A stretch of 33,133 nt of DNA from an uncultured Deferribacteres bacterium (GCA_964014485.1 CAXHAT010000082.1:1-33133), one strand, 5' to 3'; numbered from the stretch's first letter, positions 7,703 to 33,133 are shown. The notes: generated by a model not told the origin, from the sequence alone. Numbers and translations are program-made.

Positions 7703-7937
7703 CAGTAGCGTCACAAACATAAACCGTTGTATTTTATGCAGTTAGCGTACACAAACGATACGCCGTCTTGTGATGAAGATTCGTAAAATCGATAAGAACG
7801 AAGAGCCTTTTCCTAGAATTGAGAACGGCGCGTCAAGGCAAGGCTCCAAAGCAACTTTTTTCGGAGTGCGGCGATGAATCGTCGTCCCGCCGGGCCGCTT
7901 CAAAACACAGAAATTGCAAAGCGTTTCACAGCGTGTT

Positions 7938-7965
7938 GTAGAGGTTCAAGATTTTGAACCCCTAC
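7938..7965. repeat. 28-bp GTAG...CTAC REP-like palindrome (family 1)
   Basis: GTAGAGGTTCAAGATTTTGAACCCCTAC; near-identical copy at 23373. Confidence 0.8.
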
Positions 7966-8217: not shown

Positions 8218-8459
8218 CTGATGTTACGCACGCGTTGTTTGGCACGAGCAATCAAAGCCTGCGGGTAACTTTCGGTTCTCACTAGCTCCGCTCTTCAGAG
8301 CGGAGACTTTTGAAGACGCCCGTCCCCTCTCTTCCGCCGCTCTGGCGCGGCGGAAGAGAAGAAAATGGGCGTTTTGTGCGTCACCGGGCTGAAGCCCGGC
8401 GCTAATGAGACGAGATTTGCCTCAAGATTCAGGATGTGCGTTGACGCGCATAACATCAG
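8218..8459. mobile_element. MITE-like element copy B (242 bp)
   Basis: CTGATGTTACGC...GCATAACATCAG; flanks TTATTTG and TTACTTA (5/7 match, eroded TSD). Interior is colinear with copy C. Confidence 0.85.
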
Positions 8460-11147: not shown

Positions 11148-11175
11148 GTAGAGACGCGATGCATCGCGTCTCTAC
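11148..11175. repeat. 28-bp perfect GTAG...CTAC REP-like palindrome (family 2)
   Basis: GTAGAGACGCGATGCATCGCGTCTCTAC; a degenerate GTAG hairpin precedes it at 11105-11130. Confidence 0.85.
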
Positions 11176-11256
11176 CGTCAGATCAGCGTTTTCCTAAACA
11201 AGTTTGTATTGAGGCCGCGCCCCAATCCATATTCTAATGTCACAATCGCTAAGACA

Positions 11257-16443: not shown

Positions 16444-16686
16444 CTGATGTTACACACCGCCGTTTGGCACGCGCGATTAAAGCCCGCAGGCAACTCTTTG
16501 ATTCTCATTAGCTCCGTTCTTCAGAGCGGAGACTATTAAAGACGCCCGTCCCATCCCTTCCGCCGCGCTGGCGCGGCGGAAGGGATGAAAATGAGCGCCT
16601 TGCACGTCACCGGGCTCAAGCCCGGTGCTAATGAAACTATGTTCAAGTCTGAACAACAGGCGATGCATCGGCGTGCGCAACATCAG
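16444..16686. mobile_element. MITE-like element copy C (243 bp)
   Basis: CTGATGTTACAC...GCGCAACATCAG; flanks TTATTGA and TCATTGA (6/7 match). Same three-hairpin interior as copy B. Confidence 0.87.
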
Positions 16687-19295: not shown

Positions 19296-19418
19296 TGCCT
19301 GCCGGTTATTCGGCAGATTCAAAATCTAACCGAAAACTCTGGAACCAAACGCTTCGCCGTTTAATTTAGAAGGCGGCGCTGCAATCATGAATCGTCGCAC
19401 ACCGCAAAGAGTTAATCA

Positions 19419-19649
19419 CTGATAACGCAGCTGACCAATAATATGGCATTTGATTAAAATCTTTGCTCTACGCGTCATTCCTGCGTAGGCAGGAATCCAG
19501 AAAATGGTGCACGGCCACTGGATTCCTGCCTCCGCAGGAATGACCTTGAAAAACGTTTTGGGGTCAGACAGCTTTGTTTCCAATTGCAATTTTCGATTCG
19601 GCCGGAAACCAATCTACAGCATGCATTATTGGTAAGCGCCTAACATCAG
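19419..19649. mobile_element. MITE-like element copy D (231 bp, different cargo)
   Basis: Degenerate left end CTGATAACGCA, right end GCCTAACATCAG; perfect TSD TTAATCA at 19412-19418 and 19650-19656; subterminal inverted repeat ACCAATAAT/ATTATTGGT. Confidence 0.78.
19474..19544. repeat. GTCATTCC-type inverted REP pair (dRS3/RPE-like) inside copy D
   Basis: GTCATTCCTGCGTAGGCAGGAATCCAG ... CTGGATTCCTGCCTCCGCAGGAATGAC. Confidence 0.85.
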
Positions 19650-19729
19650 TTAATCAGAAGCATTCTTCAATTTTGCGGCGCTTCCCTCCCGCCCCGGCCG
19701 CACATCTCAAAAGAACTCCGCTTAGCAAG

Positions 19730-19801: not shown

Positions 19802-20428
19802 TTGAGCGCTCAAGACAGGACAAAATCATTGCAAAACGCAGTCGCTGATAAAACACTCGAGGCGAAAAATATTGAGGCGGAATTGATCGCCGCCTGCCAA
19901 AGGGGGGAACGGCAGGCGCAGTTTCAATTTTATCAGAAGTACAATGAGAAAGTGTTCAACATTGCGTTTCGCATGGCAAACGACTCTCAGGCCGCGGAAG
20001 ATTTAACCCAGCAAACGTTCATCAAGGCATTCCAAAAGATGGGTGATTTTCGCGGCGAGGCGGCGCTCTCGTCCTGGCTTTACCGCATCACGACAAACTT
20101 GTGTCTGAATCATCTGAAAAAGGCGAATCGCTGGCGAAAGCTCGTTTCCCGCGACGCCCCGGAAGTAACGCGCCGAATCCCTGCAAAGTCTTTCGAGAAT
20201 TCAGGGAGCGCGGCGTTAAAACCGCATCTCGAAAAGGCGATTCAGAAACTGCCGGATCGCTACCGGACGGTTTTTGTCCTGCATGACGTCGAGGGATTCA
20301 ACCATAAGGAAATCGGCGATATGCTGGGCGTTGCAGTCGGTACTTCAAAATCGCAATTGCACAAAGCGCGGCGTTCGCTTCGTGAAATATTGTCGCCGGT
20401 GTTGGCCATGCATAAGTCTTTGAGTTAA
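19802..20428 (+). CDS. ECF RNA polymerase sigma-70 factor
   Basis: AEDLTQQTF, FRGEAALSSWLYRI (region 2); LPDRYRTVFVLHDVEGFNHKEI, GTSKSQLHKAR (region 4). Start may instead be TTG 19829. Confidence 0.96.
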   Translation: MSAQDRTKSLQNAVADKTLEAKNIEAELIAACQRGERQAQFQFYQKYNEKVFNIAFRMANDSQAAEDLTQQTFIKAFQKMGDFRGEAALSSWLYRITTNLCLNHLKKANRWRKLVSRDAPEVTRRIPAKSFENSGSAALKPHLEKAIQKLPDRYRTVFVLHDVEGFNHKEIGDMLGVAVGTSKSQLHKARRSLREILSPVLAMHKSLS

Positions 20429-20452
20429 AACTTTATTACGGGACGCACAAAT

Positions 20453-20578
20453 ATCTCATTCCCAATCTCCGAATTGGGAATGAGATTGGGCAAGAAACTC
20501 CGGTTTCGAACCAAAGAATATACTCGAAACTGGAGTTTCGAGAGCAAGTAGGTTCCCAATCCGGAGATTGGGAACGAG
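20453..20578. repeat. CTCRTTCCCAA-type four-hairpin REP element
   Basis: CTCATTCCCAATCTCCGAATTGGGAATGAG, GAAACTCCGGTTTC, CGAAACTGGAGTTTCG, GTTCCCAATCCGGAGATTGGGAACGAG arranged as one large inverted repeat. Confidence 0.8.
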
Positions 20579-20589
20579 CCAGAAAACGA

Positions 20590-20651: not shown

Positions 20652-20704
20652 TTGCTGCTTCATCAAGACAACGGATGATAAATTTTTCTCAATTTGGTAA
20701 AACC

Positions 20705-21493
20705 ATGAACTGTAAAACTTGCCAAAACCAGCTTTCCGACTACGCGGATCAGTCGCTTTCTCCCGACAAAACCCAGGCGATTGACGAGCATTTGCGCTCA
20801 TGCGAAACATGTGCGGCGCTGCTGCATGAAATGCAAATCGTCGTTCAGAACGCCGGAGACTTGGAACGCCGACAGCCGCCGGAACATCTTTGGACGAGCA
20901 TTGCCGCCGAGTTGGACGCGCCCAGAAACGGCGTTTTTAAAAAACGGTTTTTTGAAATTATAGAAAGCGTGAAAGGCGCTCTCACCAGCCCCGGTTTTGC
21001 AGTTAAAGGCGCAGCAGCTTTTGCTCTGCTTCTTCTGGGCGTTTTCATTGGCCGGACATTCTTCCCGTCGTCCGATTCTGAAACGCAATTTGCTGAAAAC
21101 AGCGCCGATTTTGAACTGCTGAACCAACGCGCACAACAATATTTGGAAAAATCAAAACTCGTCTTGACAAGCGTCGCGCATACGGAATTCGAAACGGATG
21201 AGCCGGTCGAAATCGATTTGGAAAAGCGCATCTCCGCGCAGCTTTTGCAAGAATCCGCCTACTTGCAGGAGCATCTACCGCAACGCAAAAATGAACGGCT
21301 GCGCCGATTGATGACGCAATTAGACATGATTTTAAGCGAAATCGCGGAGCTGCAAGATCAGGAAGATTTTGAAAGCATTGAGCTCATCCGCGACGGCATT
21401 GAAAGCACCGACCTTATTCTGCAAATCAACCTCAACCGATTGCAGGAAGAGTTAATCGTGCCCGTCAAAAGTGAAAAAGATCAATTATTATAA
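20705..21493 (+). CDS. Zinc-finger (zf-HC2/ZAS) transmembrane anti-sigma factor
   Basis: MNCKTC...HLRSCETC, a single TM helix (AAAFALLLLGVFIG) and a helical C-terminal domain; follows the ECF gene. Confidence 0.9.
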   Translation: MNCKTCQNQLSDYADQSLSPDKTQAIDEHLRSCETCAALLHEMQIVVQNAGDLERRQPPEHLWTSIAAELDAPRNGVFKKRFFEIIESVKGALTSPGFAVKGAAAFALLLLGVFIGRTFFPSSDSETQFAENSADFELLNQRAQQYLEKSKLVLTSVAHTEFETDEPVEIDLEKRISAQLLQESAYLQEHLPQRKNERLRRLMTQLDMILSEIAELQDQEDFESIELIRDGIESTDLILQINLNRLQEELIVPVKSEKDQLL

Positions 21494-21511: not shown

Positions 21512-23227
21512 ATGAAAGCCCGATTCCAAAAAACAACTTTCAGCTTAATGCTTTGCCTGCTCATCCCCTTGGCTGCGCAAAGCGAGACCGCTCGTTTCAA
21601 TTCCTTCGCGAATTTCTCCTTCCTGGAAGAAAACGAGTCCGACCCGGCTTATGAAGATTTTCGAAAAGCAAAAAATTTGATGTACGACGACAAGTTTCTC
21701 GAAGCGGAGCGCGCCTTCGCGAGCATTCTTTCTCGCTACAACGAGAGCAAATACCTGGACGACGCAGCCTACTATCGCGCCTACTGCCTTGAAAAAAGCG
21801 GCGAGAACAATCAGCAGGCGTTTGCGGCTTACCAGGCTTTTGCTGAAAAGTTTTCCAGCAGCCAATACTCTCGCCGAGCGCAGGAAAATTTAGTGCGCCT
21901 TGCAACTGAGCTCTATCGCGAAACGGGCCAAGAACGATACAAGGCTTACGTCCGCGAAACGAGCTCGGAAAACGAAAACTTTGATCTCAAGCTTGAAGCC
22001 ATCACCGCGCTCGGCCACATGAACAGCGACGAGGCTCTGCCGATTCTGGAGAAGATTCTAACTTCAAGCGGCAGTTCAAGAAAAGCAAAGAAAAAGGCCG
22101 TTTTTTCAATCAGCCAGATCGGTACGCCAAAAGCGACGGACGTTCTTGAGCGCACGGCGCGAGACGCAAGCGATCCTGACACGCAACAAGAAGCGGTTTT
22201 CTGGCTGGGACAGCACGGCGGGGAAGGCGTTGTGGAAACGCTGGGGAATATCTTCGAAGCTTCGGAAAGTCGTCAAGTTCGCAAAAAAGTTATTTTCTCG
22301 TTGTCGCAAATTGGCGGAACCGAGGCGCGGAACAAACTGGCGAAAATTGCCCGTGACGACGCTGAACCGAGAAGTCAGGAAGATGCGATTTTTTGGCTGG
22401 GGCAGAAAGGTGATCACGACGCAGCAATGGATGAATTGCTGGACATCTACAAAACGACAAAAAATCGTTCGGCGCGTAAGAAAGTGATTTTTTCCATCGG
22501 GCAAATGGGCGACGAGCGAGCATTTCGAATTCTTGTCGATTTCGCGAAAGACGAAAGTGACGCCGCGTCGCAAGAAGCAGCCGTTTTCTGGTTGGGACAA
22601 AGCGCCGGAAGCCGCGCGATCAGACCGCTGCAGGAAATTTTGCGCACGACCAAAAACGCAAATGTGAAAAAGAAAATCGTTTTTTCAATGAGCCAGATTG
22701 GAGGACAAGAAACGTTCAACATCCTCAAGGACATGGCGCTGAACGACCCGGATTCCAAGACGCAGCAAGAAGCGATCTTTTGGCTGGGTCAGCGCGGCGG
22801 CGCTAAAGCCGTTGAGCCGCTGAACGAAATTTTTGAGAAGAGCGACGATCCCGCGACGCGCAAAAAAGTCGTTTTCGCACTGTCGCAGATTCGCAGTCCG
22901 GAAGCGCGCGCAAAACTGGAGAAAATCGCTCGCAACGACGCTGAACCGAAGAGCCAGGAAGAAGCGATTTTTTGGTTGGGTCAACACGGCGGCTCCGGAG
23001 CGCTGAAGCAGCTCACGGACATTTACAACGCCACCAAAAACTATTCGGCGAAAAAGAAGGTCATTTTTGCGGCTTCACAAATGCACTCCGAAGAATCGCT
23101 CGATTTTCTCATCCGAATCGCAAAGAGCGGCAAATCCGCCGAAGTCCGCAAACAAGCGATTTTCTGGCTCGGACAACGCAACGACGACCGCGCGCGTCAG
23201 GCGCTGCAAGACATTATTAATCAATAG
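21512..23227 (+). CDS. Exported TPR-like + HEAT-repeat protein
   Basis: Signal peptide (…LIPLAAQ), TPR-like DDAAYYRAYCLEK, then six pairs of alternating KKVIFSLSQ / QEAIFWLGQ repeats; GGAG Shine-Dalgarno. Confidence 0.9.
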   Translation: MKARFQKTTFSLMLCLLIPLAAQSETARFNSFANFSFLEENESDPAYEDFRKAKNLMYDDKFLEAERAFASILSRYNESKYLDDAAYYRAYCLEKSGENNQQAFAAYQAFAEKFSSSQYSRRAQENLVRLATELYRETGQERYKAYVRETSSENENFDLKLEAITALGHMNSDEALPILEKILTSSGSSRKAKKKAVFSISQIGTPKATDVLERTARDASDPDTQQEAVFWLGQHGGEGVVETLGNIFEASESRQVRKKVIFSLSQIGGTEARNKLAKIARDDAEPRSQEDAIFWLGQKGDHDAAMDELLDIYKTTKNRSARKKVIFSIGQMGDERAFRILVDFAKDESDAASQEAAVFWLGQSAGSRAIRPLQEILRTTKNANVKKKIVFSMSQIGGQETFNILKDMALNDPDSKTQQEAIFWLGQRGGAKAVEPLNEIFEKSDDPATRKKVVFALSQIRSPEARAKLEKIARNDAEPKSQEEAIFWLGQHGGSGALKQLTDIYNATKNYSAKKKVIFAASQMHSEESLDFLIRIAKSGKSAEVRKQAIFWLGQRNDDRARQALQDIINQ

Positions 23228-23372
23228 CCCACGCGACGTGAAGGGTAACCGGTCAGCTTACCAACCGCGTTTGCGGTCTTGCTCGAAGAGTGGGAGTCAA
23301 ACGCTTCAACGTTTGATTGGGAGCTTTCTGTGGGGGCTTAAAACATAATATTTATAATGGGTTACACCAAAT

Positions 23373-23400
23373 GTAGGGGGTCAAAATTTTGAACCCCTAC
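23373..23400. repeat. 28-bp GTAG...CTAC REP-like palindrome (family 1)
   Basis: GTAGGGGGTCAAAATTTTGAACCCCTAC. Confidence 0.8.
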
Positions 23401-23532
23401 GATATGCTGTATGCCTTGTATTCAGAGACCATATTTTTGAACAATCCCACTCAGGAGAAAGAGTTACTCAGAAGCACTTGGCGACTCTCGACAAATAAAA
23501 CTTTCATTGCACAAGATGGAAAGGATGACAAA

Positions 23533-24876
23533 ATGAAAACCAAGACTGTACTCATAATTTTGCTCGCGTCACTTGCGTGCGCGACGTTTTCCCAAGCGCG
23601 CCAAGCCGAGCTTCCGGAAAATTTCGTCCGGCTTTCAGGACAAAACAGCGTTGAATCAGCGATTCGAGAAGCAAATTCGCGCGCCGAAAACAACGAACGT
23701 TTTTGGGTCGGTTATCGAACGGATTTGCGGGATGATCTCGTGAGAAAAGGCCGCGTCTATATTCACGACAACGGCGGCGTTAGTTGGTATCACGGCGATG
23801 AAAACTGGTTTTGGGATGAGGACAACGATGACCTGAAAACCACGGCTTATCGCGCGCTTGCAGAAATGGGGGACGATGAAGCGAAAGAAGAACTTAAGAA
23901 ACGCCGTCGTCAAGTCGTGATGTTTTCCCCCGAGGATTACGCGATCTATTTTCTCCTTGACAAAGGCTCTTCTCAACCGCAGCGCGTGCAATTCCTGCAT
24001 TTTGACCATGTGAAAAGGCTGCGCGGGATCAAAACTTACTGGGCTGCGAAGCTTCCCGCGAACGGCAGCTTTTCTTTTCTCAAAAATATCGTCGAAAACG
24101 CCGCCGCGCCGGATCGCGTCCGCAAACCAGCGGTATTCCTGACCAGCCTGCACGACACGCCTGAGACGATTCCGTTTCTAAAACGCACAGCCGCTTCGGA
24201 CGAAGATTATGACGTTCGCAAAACCGCGACGTTTTGGCTTTCGCAAATTCCTGTAGAAGAAAGCTTTGACGCCTTGCTCGATCTATACGAAAAAGAAGAG
24301 TCCATAAAACTCAAGGGCGAGATCGTTTTCGCGCTCAGCCAACACAAAAGTGAGCGTTCAACACCCAAATTGGCGGAAATCGCCCGCTCAAAAGAACCGT
24401 TTCACGTGAGAGAAAAAGCGGTGTTTTGGCTTGGGCAAACCAATGAAGAATCAGCGCTCGACGTTTTGCAAGAAATCTACGATGAAAACGCCGACAGTCG
24501 TTTGAAGGAAAAAATCATTTTCTCAATCAGCCAACACAAGAGCGAACGCTCGCCGAAAATCCTGATTGACATTGCCGAGAACGATAGTGACCGTCACGCG
24601 CGGGAAAAGGCGATTTTTTGGTTGGGGCAAATTGCCGGCAAGAAGAGCCTGGAAGTGCTGCGCGGCATTGTCGTAGATGACGATGAGACGAAAATTCAGG
24701 AAAAAGCCGTATTCGCCATTAGCCAAAATCGGGATCGCGATGAAGCGACCAAAATCCTGCTCGACATTGCCAGAAATCACAAAAACCCGCACGTCCGCAA
24801 GAAAGCAATTTTCTGGCTCGGCCAAACGGACAAGAGCAAGGCGCTGGAGCTTTACAAGGACATCTTGAAAAACTAA
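23533..24876 (+). CDS. Exported HEAT-repeat protein 2
   Basis: Signal peptide MKTKTVLIILLASLACATFSQA, a unique N-terminal domain, and four pairs of IFSISQ / AIFWLGQ repeats. Confidence 0.88.
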   Translation: MKTKTVLIILLASLACATFSQARQAELPENFVRLSGQNSVESAIREANSRAENNERFWVGYRTDLRDDLVRKGRVYIHDNGGVSWYHGDENWFWDEDNDDLKTTAYRALAEMGDDEAKEELKKRRRQVVMFSPEDYAIYFLLDKGSSQPQRVQFLHFDHVKRLRGIKTYWAAKLPANGSFSFLKNIVENAAAPDRVRKPAVFLTSLHDTPETIPFLKRTAASDEDYDVRKTATFWLSQIPVEESFDALLDLYEKEESIKLKGEIVFALSQHKSERSTPKLAEIARSKEPFHVREKAVFWLGQTNEESALDVLQEIYDENADSRLKEKIIFSISQHKSERSPKILIDIAENDSDRHAREKAIFWLGQIAGKKSLEVLRGIVVDDDETKIQEKAVFAISQNRDRDEATKILLDIARNHKNPHVRKKAIFWLGQTDKSKALELYKDILKN

Positions 24877-26228: not shown

Positions 26229-26256
26229 GCAGAGACGCGATGCATCGCGTCTCTGC
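26229..26256. repeat. 28-bp perfect REP-like palindrome (family 2 variant)
   Basis: GCAGAGACGCGATGCATCGCGTCTCTGC; differs from the 11148 copy by one compensatory base pair. Confidence 0.85.
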
Positions 26257-26362
26257 GTTCAATAAAGTTAAATCACTTGACTAAAAAGCGGGCTCAACCT
26301 ACCTTTCCCTCGCCGCAAATCGTTCAAAGAAATCCACCGCAATTTTTAGCTGATTACGAAAT

Positions 26363-32800: not shown

Positions 32801-33025
32801 CGTTTTGTGCGGTTTATTAATTTGCCGTCTCAATGCACCGTGCGCATCTACACCGTCAACGGCGATTTGGTACAAACGCTGGAACACGACGGTTTGGACA
32901 AGGGCGCGATTCGGTGGGATTTGCGCTCAAAGGACGGCTTGGAAGTGGCGTTTGGCTTGTACGTCTACCATGTCGATGCGCCGGGGATTGGAGAAAAAGT
33001 GGACAAATTCGCAATTATTAACTGA
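29846..33025 (+). CDS. Large secreted acidic protein with Asp-rich Ca-binding-like loops, an FN3-like domain and a T9SS/FlgD-Ig-like C-terminal domain
   Basis: Signal peptide MKKVLLIIFFAINFVNHLLA; DGRDNDMDGLLDE; PTLTATPSDGKVILTWD...FEGYRIYRS...YFYAVTSYD; VVPNPY...RIYTVNGDLV...WD...GLYVY tail. Confidence 0.85.
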   Translation: MKKVLLIIFFAINFVNHLLAQDNGNGIYIDPNRSDPNARRSLILSANQVESFVGNWGNIGQGDIPISGVWPRGTGHDHIHELTGIIGASVVDTNGTRIVIISDGFRDGGGTSGELDPITNIGWKFHPLPGYVNLAQGQDEFANSLNSRSWPDTWPGKDATWNGLWNGFFGLHQFNADQEAFYMMDDTFNKEFQFFPIDGDFERQGLGMQVGTRLFQWTHPLAKDILFIYYEVTNIGDHDYDATESPIYFGVYGDVGLGGRGTVDDDSAFRDDLDLVYGWDHDNRGVWSRNREIPPGYMGWKFLESPGISDDGRDNDMDGLLDERRDNPAGNLVFGPVGIYGDPKEHFEGDEDGDWNSVVGDVGSDGIGPLDEGYPGPDSDGTENNGVPDQGEPDFGKLDNDESDQVGLTSFDAPPFATVLVSDEEALWQRIEAGNFKLNVTQAINQYWIFGSGPFNLPSKNTERFSTAVLFAPDELGLFQTAGVAQRIFDSDYRFAKPPKQPTLTATPSDGKVILTWDNIAEFSRDPVYGSDFEGYRIYRSTDPQFLDAEDITDARGNAVFRKPIAQFDIANGLTGPHPLQFGEEIDQPTGIHYYMGDDTGLQHYFIDDDVINGRTYFYAVTSYDTGYDEDFFQRNLSDFEFLFPITPSESPAAIIVNEGIITRRDRNTAIATPNPLPSNVIDGVLQQVEHAEGLATGSVEAELVVTDFLETGDFTVTFETEQSGSAVEYETITFSVFNETSGEFAAENERILLNYADGKPIRNWAFEALDKGFVLNFKNQFPTKAFARDNSGWEGEVETNILTLVEPLFESSPVEPISFVVEVGEVGAIEDSAFTSTTGRISKPVNFKVYQLGSNEPIDFVFFEARSSDDGEIDADEIIYIVFKPTPTARRFTSSWSIKFNRPLDLDGNEFPDEQIIVPKAGDKFIVRNMIPFEEGDVFTFSTTAKQVLSSPGEGVLADVRVVPNPYIVSSILEQQPFLSGRGERFVRFINLPSQCTVRIYTVNGDLVQTLEHDGLDKGAIRWDLRSKDGLEVAFGLYVYHVDAPGIGEKVDKFAIIN

Positions 33026-33133
33026 TGTTACGCGACAGCAGCGACGCCGTAGAAACTCTCGTCAAAGTCATTCCCGCTCAGGCGCATTCACGTCAACCTA
33101 ATTGCAAAGCCGTTTGAAGTTATTGTTTTTTAA
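33022..33133. mobile_element. MITE-like element copy E (left end only, cut by the window edge)
   Basis: CTGATGTTACGC preceded by target-like TTATTAA (33015-33021); degenerate GTCATTCCCGC hairpin at 33067. Confidence 0.65.

Follow-up and report, generated by a model that had tools for sequence, protein, structure and literature searches.

The 231-bp element at 19419-19649 (copy D) of the analysed window, i.e., of the whole 33,133-nt stretch that constitutes contig C82 of an 8.4-Mb, 465-contig, 97%-complete MAG (G000), belongs together with its relatives to the type II MITEs and is an orphan in this assembly. The ends of these MITEs are those of an IS701-family IS (NF049921 type, 1.07-1.11 kb) that we have located in other genomes, and the centre of copy D is occupied by an inverted doublet that fits the CGTC-1 family of REPs. 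Taken as a whole, these observations are probably best read as those of an orphan type II MITE with IS701-type ends, whose subfamily founder captured a CGTC-1 doublet that was subsequently copied along with the element. The same ends, associated with host-specific palindromes, recur widely across phyla.

Copy D and other repeats of the window

Read directly, copy D is a TIR-bounded element flanked by a perfect 7-bp TSD (7/7), with one copy of TTAATCA at 19412-19418 and the other at 19650-19656, the family target consensus being TTANTAA. The right TIR, GCGCCTAACATCAG (19636-19649, minus strand), shares 13 of its 14 positions with the family 14-mer. The left TIR, CTGATAACGCAG (19419-19430, plus strand), is damaged: relative to the D-subfamily end CTGATGTTACGCAG, taken from the representative of cluster 3 (the D subfamily), it shows a 2-base deletion and one substitution, and a copy with such a left end is probably immobile now. 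Inward of the TIRs lie two arms specific to the D subfamily (both plus strand), the left one (19431-19472, arm type 2) being partially complementary to the right one (19546-19635, arm type 1). Between them, the inverted pair GTCATTCC...GGAATGAC spans 19474-19544 as a 71-nt inverted doublet. REP 1 (19473-19500, plus strand) consists of a CGTC tag (19473-19476), an 8-bp stem ATTCCTGC, the 4-nt loop GTAG, the stem GCAGGAAT and the tail CCAG; it is followed by a 17-nt spacer (19501-19517), which has the lowest column identity in the D subfamily (0.55-0.68), and by REP 2 (19518-19545, minus strand), an inverted copy of REP 1 (CTGG, ATTCCTGC, CTCC, GCAGGAAT, GACC). When treated as single-stranded DNA, the entire element is predicted to form a single long hairpin (-46.7 kcal/mol, z = -5.6, equalled by 0 of 200 shuffles), and it contains 0 ORFs of 80 aa or more. 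Its neighbours are a methyltransferase gene on one side and an ECF sigma-factor gene on the other, both on one strand.

Copy D is matched over 80% or more of its length by 25 further copies, at 68-91% identity (median 82%), and D is, therefore, neither unique nor recent. Its left arm was encountered without a TIR at 0 of 35 loci. Among public data sets, the stretch is listed for one marine-metagenome study and for no RNA data set. The public contigs that include the D locus display filled junctions only and no joint across the element, and two small joints observed inside the REP of D in public contigs are derived from other copies.

Copy A (485-870) has the same ends, a TSD of AATTTAA (7/7) and an ATTAGC-type interior, and it is a composite with approximately 145 extra bases. 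Copies B (8218-8459, 242 bp, flanks TTATTTG and TTACTTA, 5/7) and C (16444-16686, 243 bp, flanks TTATTGA and TCATTGA, 6/7) are cluster-0 MITEs with an ATTAGC three-hairpin unit, and BLAST aligns them to each other at 84.5% identity across 194 bp. The description of copy D given in an earlier note on this DNA (a family right end, a degenerate left end, a perfect TSD, a length close to those of B and C, and an interior with an inverted pair that has no similarity to A, B or C) holds in all these respects. BLAST matches between D and these three copies are limited to 12-14 terminal bases (E 0.12-5). Copy E (33022-33133, plus strand, with the contig stopping inside) had been read in that note as apparently holding a degenerate unit; it is instead composed of a cluster-1-type left end and arm, flanked by TTATTAA, and of a REP hairpin whose loop is broken, after GTCATTCCCGCTCAGGC, by one end (GCATTCACGTCAACCTAAT...) of an IS that targets REPs.

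The window contains repeats of other kinds as well. A free TTCCCAA/CGAAACT hairpin unit (GTTCCCAA..TTGGGAAC and CGAAACT..AGTTTCG hairpins), equivalent to the interior of cluster-2 MITEs, occupies 20429-20580 with no family TIR within 250 bp, and fills the gap that separates the ECF sigma-factor gene (19802-20428) from a zf-HC2 anti-sigma gene (20675-21493). Two palindrome families are represented twice each, AGAGACGCGATGCATCGCGTCTCT at 11150-11180 and 26231-26261 (and also on contig C388) and TGTAGGGGTTCAAAATTTTGAACCCCTAC at 7937-7965 and 23372-23400. Two ORFs within 21512-24876 share a 96/192-nt periodic repeat with a 37-nt core present 10 times, which probably reflects a repeat protein.

The MITE family, its parent IS and the same ends in other genomes

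The exact 14-mer CTGATGTTACGCRC is present in G000 in 137 forward and 139 reverse copies (0 for a reversed control), and in 30 relatives from the same family, order or class it is found no more than once per genome. Pairing of ends by their 12-mer with up to 2 mismatches yielded 244 pairs, including 223 shorter than 600 bp, 221 of which have both flanks. In 131 of these 221 paired elements, with TSDs counted from TIR-based coordinates, the flanking 7-mers agree with at most 1 mismatch, as compared with 12.4 on average and never more than 21 when the partners were shuffled 200 times; thus, the TSDs of the family are not a product of chance. The consensus of the flanks is a palindromic target, TTANTAA. 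Many contigs of G000 end inside family elements, and hence the true copy number is higher than the counted one.

Clustering of the interiors at 80% mutual coverage (single linkage at 50% coverage merged all of them) produced 54 clusters, with 49, 40, 23, 21 and 21 members in the five largest, the rest being eight small clusters and 41 singletons. The 49-copy cluster (~242 bp) has the ATTAGC three-hairpin unit and includes copies A, B and C, the 40-copy cluster 1 (~174 bp) has the GTCATTCCCGC doublet, and the 23-copy cluster 2 (~281 bp) has TTCCCAA/CGAAACT hairpins. One of the two 21-copy clusters (~173 bp) is characterized by a long GGAGTGCAAGG stem, and the other (~234 bp) is the D type, so that D is not the sole copy with a different cargo. 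Positions 1-14 are the sole part conserved across clusters, and the at least five large subfamilies have in common the 14-bp ends and the TTANTAA target and nothing else, their arms being different. Within subfamilies, column identity amounts to 0.90-0.97 for the TIRs, 0.93-1.0 for the hairpin stems, 0.65-0.92 for the arms and 0.51-0.68 for the spacers. The idea of a transposon shell carrying palindromic cargo, which the earlier note had put forward, is sustained with respect to the cargo (many subfamilies with unrelated palindromic interiors, units that also occur free without TIR or TSD, and recurrence in other phyla) but has to be revised with respect to the shell, which is common to the family only as 14 bp and a target preference.

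A parent for these ends was found outside G000. The ends of four loci of other genomes (L028, L029, L070 and L088) are the family 14-mer, and L029 (1112 bp), L028 (1106 bp) and L070 (1070 bp) combine them with a 7-bp TTANTAA duplication. The transposase of these three is a DDE enzyme of ~320-350 aa, scoring 278-297 bits (cut-off 250) with the NCBIfam profile NF049921 ('IS701 family transposase') and also matching Pfam DDE_5, DDE_Tnp_2 (ISC1217) and DDE_Tnp_1; in the 1.1-kb ISs its reading frame terminates within the right TIR. With this group the MITEs share identical ends as well as the length and target of the TSD, and they are small, non-coding and multi-copy. The interpretation of TIR plus TSD as a DDE signature is, thus, supported by an actual DDE transposase family having the same ends. 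IS701 itself is described as making a shorter duplication, and the 1.1-kb, 7-bp group may accordingly be a distinct subgroup; a literature search for an IS701 family with 7-bp direct repeats returned no match.

The cognate transposase exists elsewhere as an IS701-family IS but is absent from the G000 assembly, in which tblastn gave no match and the NF049921 profile 0 matches. The several hundred MITE copies are for this reason orphans here, and since no transposase was found, their mobilisation in this organism is deduced from the TSDs only. ISs are often missing from MAGs and binned assemblies, and orphan status thus refers to the assembly and not necessarily to the cell. Several candidates for the cognate were considered and rejected, namely a nested IS at C25:31228-33005, which has other ends (GTCACTAACTTTTCG), ten DDE_Tnp_1 matches in G000, whose ends are different or in no case family-like, and nine ORFs beside solo TIRs, which are housekeeping genes.

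In a scan with a single genome for every species, TTANTAA followed by the first 12 end bases served as the pattern, so that the loci obtained have these features on that side by construction; the scan yielded at least 120 stretches, with ~4000 estimated in all. Among the matches listed, the pattern is found in Bacteroidota, Cyanobacteria, Methylococcales, large sulfur bacteria, Chloroflexota, Acidobacteriota, Planctomycetota, Latescibacterota, Neisseriaceae, Campylobacterales and others. A partner end (up to 2 mismatches) accompanied by the same 7-mer (up to 1 mismatch) is present in 41 of the 123 pattern matches listed, comprising 34 short elements, 5 matches of 1070-1112 bp that represent three distinct ISs, and 2 matches that belong to one 2335-bp copy with a second IS. 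The interiors of the 33 short same-ended elements listed, folded with their ends removed and compared with dinucleotide shuffles, gave z of -3 or below in 24 cases (median z -7.0), and several of the interiors among the matches listed are recognisable REP types of their own hosts. A Bacteroidetes MAG (G031), for instance, contains the family 12-mer 37 times and a CGTC-like REP of its own 39 times; when the positions were compared by hand, 10 of these 39 had a TIR within ~220 bp and the other 29 did not. A Parabeggiatoa genome contains 769 TIR matches and 559 interior-motif matches, and the figures for a Mycoavidus MAG (counts only) are 20 and 33.

The REP doublet inside and outside the elements

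The consensus of the REP in G000 is CGTC / ATTCCCGC / GCAG / GCGGGAAT / CCA. According to the sections on these repeats (section 6 for the features) in Di Nocera, De Gregorio and Rocco (2013, PMC3733652), CGTC-1 REPs are characterized by a CGTC (or TGTC/CCTC) tag, an 8-bp stem starting with AT, a 4-nt loop, a CCA tail and a mostly dimeric, inverted arrangement, and are equated with the Neisseria dRS3 repeat; tag, stem, loop and tail of the REP in copy D all match this description. A profile search of G000 with the 71-nt doublet retrieved 265 loci, of which 177 are full-length and 131 measure 70-79 nt, i.e., are doublets. Two TIRs enclose 60 of the 177 full units, a single TIR accompanies 22, another 28 are situated close to a contig end, and 67 (exclusive of loci near contig ends) have no TIR within 330 bp. 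The term 'free' here denotes the lack of a TIR (up to 2 mismatches) within 250-330 bp, under which badly decayed shells may be miscounted as free. Flanks of the free doublets are unique, a flanking direct repeat of 3-7 bp is present in 0 of 55, and, of these 55, 28 have C and 13 have T as the base preceding GTC. The REP is also present in 8 of the 30 relatives (including the unpublished G016 and G023, on which nothing rests), and its 24-mer is present 40 times in G018, where the family TIR is found 0 times. Overall, the doublet is an independent repeat family, living free both in G000 and in relatives without the MITE. The other interiors, too, occur with no TIR within 250 bp (10 of 82 copies of the ATTAGC unit, 16 of 46 of the long-stem unit and 12 of 54 of the TTCCCAA/CGAAACT unit), and the corresponding figures for free arms, taken from TIR to cargo, are 0 of 35, 0 of 54 and 2 of 85.

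Some additional observations concern the surroundings of these units. Free doublets cluster locally, a few kb apart, on contigs C114, C3 and C101, some of them having a left arm of variant sequence (GTCATTCCCGCCCCGAATAAGTCGGGAGGAATCC). A second type of shell, with ends TTAACCCAAGTTGTGACC, also encloses the long-stem unit (GGAGTGCAAGGCTTGC...), at C35:25933, C69:7480, C61:11394 and C3:28054. An IS4-like family with ends GCGCAYNNCGTCAACCTAAT (441-aa DDE_Tnp_1 transposase, C388:478-3485), together with its miniatures, hits a fixed site in the CGTC REP loop, as seen at 33083-33133 of the window and on many other contigs. Indeed, 17 of 29 exact matches to GCGCAYNNCGTCAACCTAAT are preceded by GTCATTC, in 16 of these 17 at 23-24 nt, as compared with 4.8% of random positions. 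This behaviour resembles the REP-targeting of IS1397 and IS621, yet the IS family is a different one.

Such a coexistence of free and enclosed units is what one would expect from an active two-tier system, as envisaged in the earlier note, where REP/REPIN units moved by HUH enzymes preferentially enter DDE shells and are swapped as cassettes, and the genome also has seven Y1_Tnp genes that might be assigned to this role. The anticipated enrichment is real: shells account for 51,929 bp, or 0.62% of the genome (15,069 bp when counted at one per cluster), yet they hold 60 of the 177 full units. At one shell per cluster, the density is ~0.66 units per kb of shell vs. 67-76 free units in the other 8.35 Mb, and the unit density of shells is ~9x that of non-coding DNA, given a non-coding share of ~12% of the genome that is assumed rather than measured. 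The unit is spread over 10 of the 54 clusters (68 of 221 elements) in at least 11 arm combinations. Most of the enrichment, nevertheless, reflects co-amplification of a few founders, with three of the 11 arm combinations of the 60 doublets in shells accounting for 51 of them. In cluster 1, the 17-nt spacer of the doublet runs either way with respect to the arms (GGGGCTGTGCGCGATTGA or the reverse complement), which can also be cited for a two-tier system and suggests that the part between the inverted REPs was flipped or that there were two insertions; such flips are, however, possible by recombination between inverted arms.

Other evidence speaks against an exchange of cassettes. A REP unit is present within 3 kb of 0 of the 7 Y1_Tnp genes, contrary to the RAYT link proposed earlier, and for CGTC REPs there is apparently no transposase of their own according to the sections on them in PMC3733652. 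An empty shell, having the arms of cluster 1 and no REP, is represented by 0 of the 40 members of that cluster; the deletion forms observed there have a single hairpin in place of the doublet (8 of 40) or a partial deletion (1 of 40). The stem variant ATTCCTGC of D, with changes in all four half-stems, has 27 copies: two TIRs enclose 17 of them, a single TIR accompanies 8, and the other 2 are free. This variant is nearly private to the D subfamily (25 of 27 in or beside shells), as opposed to the common REP stem variant with 47 free copies of 120. Because the D variant is near-private, same-arm empty shells are missing and no enzyme is linked to the unit, ongoing exchange is disfavoured. Each subfamily looks like the outcome of one capture or founding event followed by co-amplification, rather than a draw from a pool of interchangeable cassettes, and we consider the two-tier system unlikely.

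Origin of the elements and comparison with known systems

The capture of a doublet by the founder of the D subfamily, which we regard as the probable explanation, would involve the following steps. A transposase of the NF049921 type would recognise the 14-bp termini, make a 7-bp staggered cut and prefer TTANTAA, and it would have mobilised the elements of G000 in trans, being now absent or unbinned. The doublet would have been built into the founder and thereafter copied along with the element, and the other subfamilies would have arisen in an equal manner around other palindromic repeats, via nested insertion, recombination and deletion among the families of small elements. Sitting inside a DDE transposon, the CGTC hairpins can for that reason spread as hitch-hikers. 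Hairpin interiors might, in turn, have been kept as helpful to the element, by bringing the ends of a short stiff DNA together or by self-repair of the palindrome. The conservation and recurrence of the hairpins are the observations that point to such an aid to transposition, which may operate here; the uneven conservation could also result from hairpin-templated repair or from host selection. The capture reading would lead one to look for a REP-less intermediate with the same arms, and this was not found among the 40 members of cluster 1.

A generalization of this reading across bacterial phyla is put forward more tentatively, as a possibility to which we give rather limited credence. The IS701-type family would repeatedly yield miniature elements that inherit nothing but its 14-bp ends and recruit their interiors from REP hairpins of the host, as self-folding would be what enables an element of 100-300 bp to join its ends, and REPs without a transposase, such as the CGTC REPs, would gain a vehicle. 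If true, this would amount to a general mutual hitch-hiking of the two main classes of small repeats and would provide a partial answer to the question of how CGTC REPs spread.

Repeated founding events could be dispensed with if all REP-holding subfamilies descended from a single ancestral MITE that had captured the doublet once, with arms diverging and ends and hairpins remaining under constraint. Such common descent would be in keeping with the invariably central position of the doublet, with TIRs and REP stems being the top conserved columns and arms the least conserved, and with the age of the subfamilies as illustrated by the median identity of D-type copies to D (82%). The arms, however, range from 24 to 93 nt in length and are unalignable, and the other subfamilies have quite different interiors that occur free as well. 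Moreover, nested and chimeric forms are directly seen: in cluster 5 a small palindromic element is nested within a REP, in cluster 2 half a REP is joined to the end of the REP-targeting IS, at a locus on C351 an ATTAGC unit is located inside an IS-derived element that is itself inside a REP, and cluster 7 and copy E provide further instances. Same-ended elements of other phyla hold the REPs of other hosts, so that repeated capture would be needed anyway, and we judge a single capture to be quite improbable. Very improbable is the view of the hairpins as RNA or DNA signals selected by the host (terminators, mRNA stabilisers, protein sites), with the MITE as one of several routes of scattering, for which one could cite the location of D between two same-strand genes, the conserved and covarying stems of the ATTAGC unit and the mostly downstream-of-gene location of REPs described in the relevant part of Di Nocera et al. 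(PMC3733652), but against which speak the 0 Rfam matches in the window at gathering score and the units found in arrays and within other mobile elements too, and which leaves the palindromes in same-ended elements of unrelated hosts unexplained.

For the capture by founders of MITE subfamilies, which thus remains our preferred reading, the known systems offer partial counterparts. MITEs and REPs are customarily seen as separate classes with separate enzymes. The elements described here are similar to type II MITEs, whose conservation is confined to the TIRs (Minnick 2024, PMC10969869, section 2.2), in being small, gene-less, bounded by TIR and TSD, present in many copies and matched to an autonomous IS at the termini alone; they differ from the type II MITEs of that section in that their interiors are other palindromic repeat families, which also exist free in the same genome and are host-specific across phyla. 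Nezha MITEs of cyanobacteria offer a parallel for the missing parent, as their TIR and direct repeats match ISNpu3, an IS absent from their own genome, in the account of these elements by Delihas (2011, PMC3184786), and Cyanobacteria are among the listed matches to our end pattern. As for the IS701 family itself (NF049921), likeness in ends and duplication is combined with the difference that its copy was not found in G000. The TIR string is printed in none of the relevant papers searchable in full text, the sole match being an unrelated reovirus paper.

On the REP side, the doublet shares with CGTC-1 REPs and dRS3, as portrayed in the corresponding sections of PMC3733652, the CGTC/TGTC tag, the 8-bp AT stem, the 4-nt loop, the CCA tail, the inverted dimers and the lack of a flanked transposase gene. 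The dimers found here have their tags outward; they are distinguished from the REPs covered there in that about a third of the full units are located within a TIR/TSD element. Section 7 of the same paper presents REP dimers embedded in longer palindromes, CGTC-1 in H. neapolitanus and GTAG-15 in A. variabilis, and this regular placement inside a larger repeated palindrome is similar to ours; the outer palindromes of these two species are read in that section as targets and are other sequences, without a tie to an IS or a duplication, whereas the outer element here is an IS701-type MITE. REPINs associated with RAYTs (Bertels and Rainey 2011, PMC3116915) likewise pair two REPs in inverted orientation around a short spacer and are dispersed with no duplications. 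A REPIN-RAYT system is, however, defined by doublets that flank a cognate, single-copy RAYT gene and by a GTAG tag; the tag here is CGTC/TGTC, and no Y1 gene of G000 is flanked by the units.

For metagenomics, elements of this kind are of practical concern, as assemblies break at them and a bin may lack the transposase that accounts for them. Relative to the systems compared above, the CGTC-1 doublet is here integral to several MITE subfamilies that were amplified and whose parent IS is identified, and the interest of the case resides in that identification, in the recurrence across phyla and in a possible vehicle for REPs that lack a transposase. Overall, it offers a concrete and testable route for the dispersal of REPs, as well as a testable idea on the palindromic interiors of type II MITEs.
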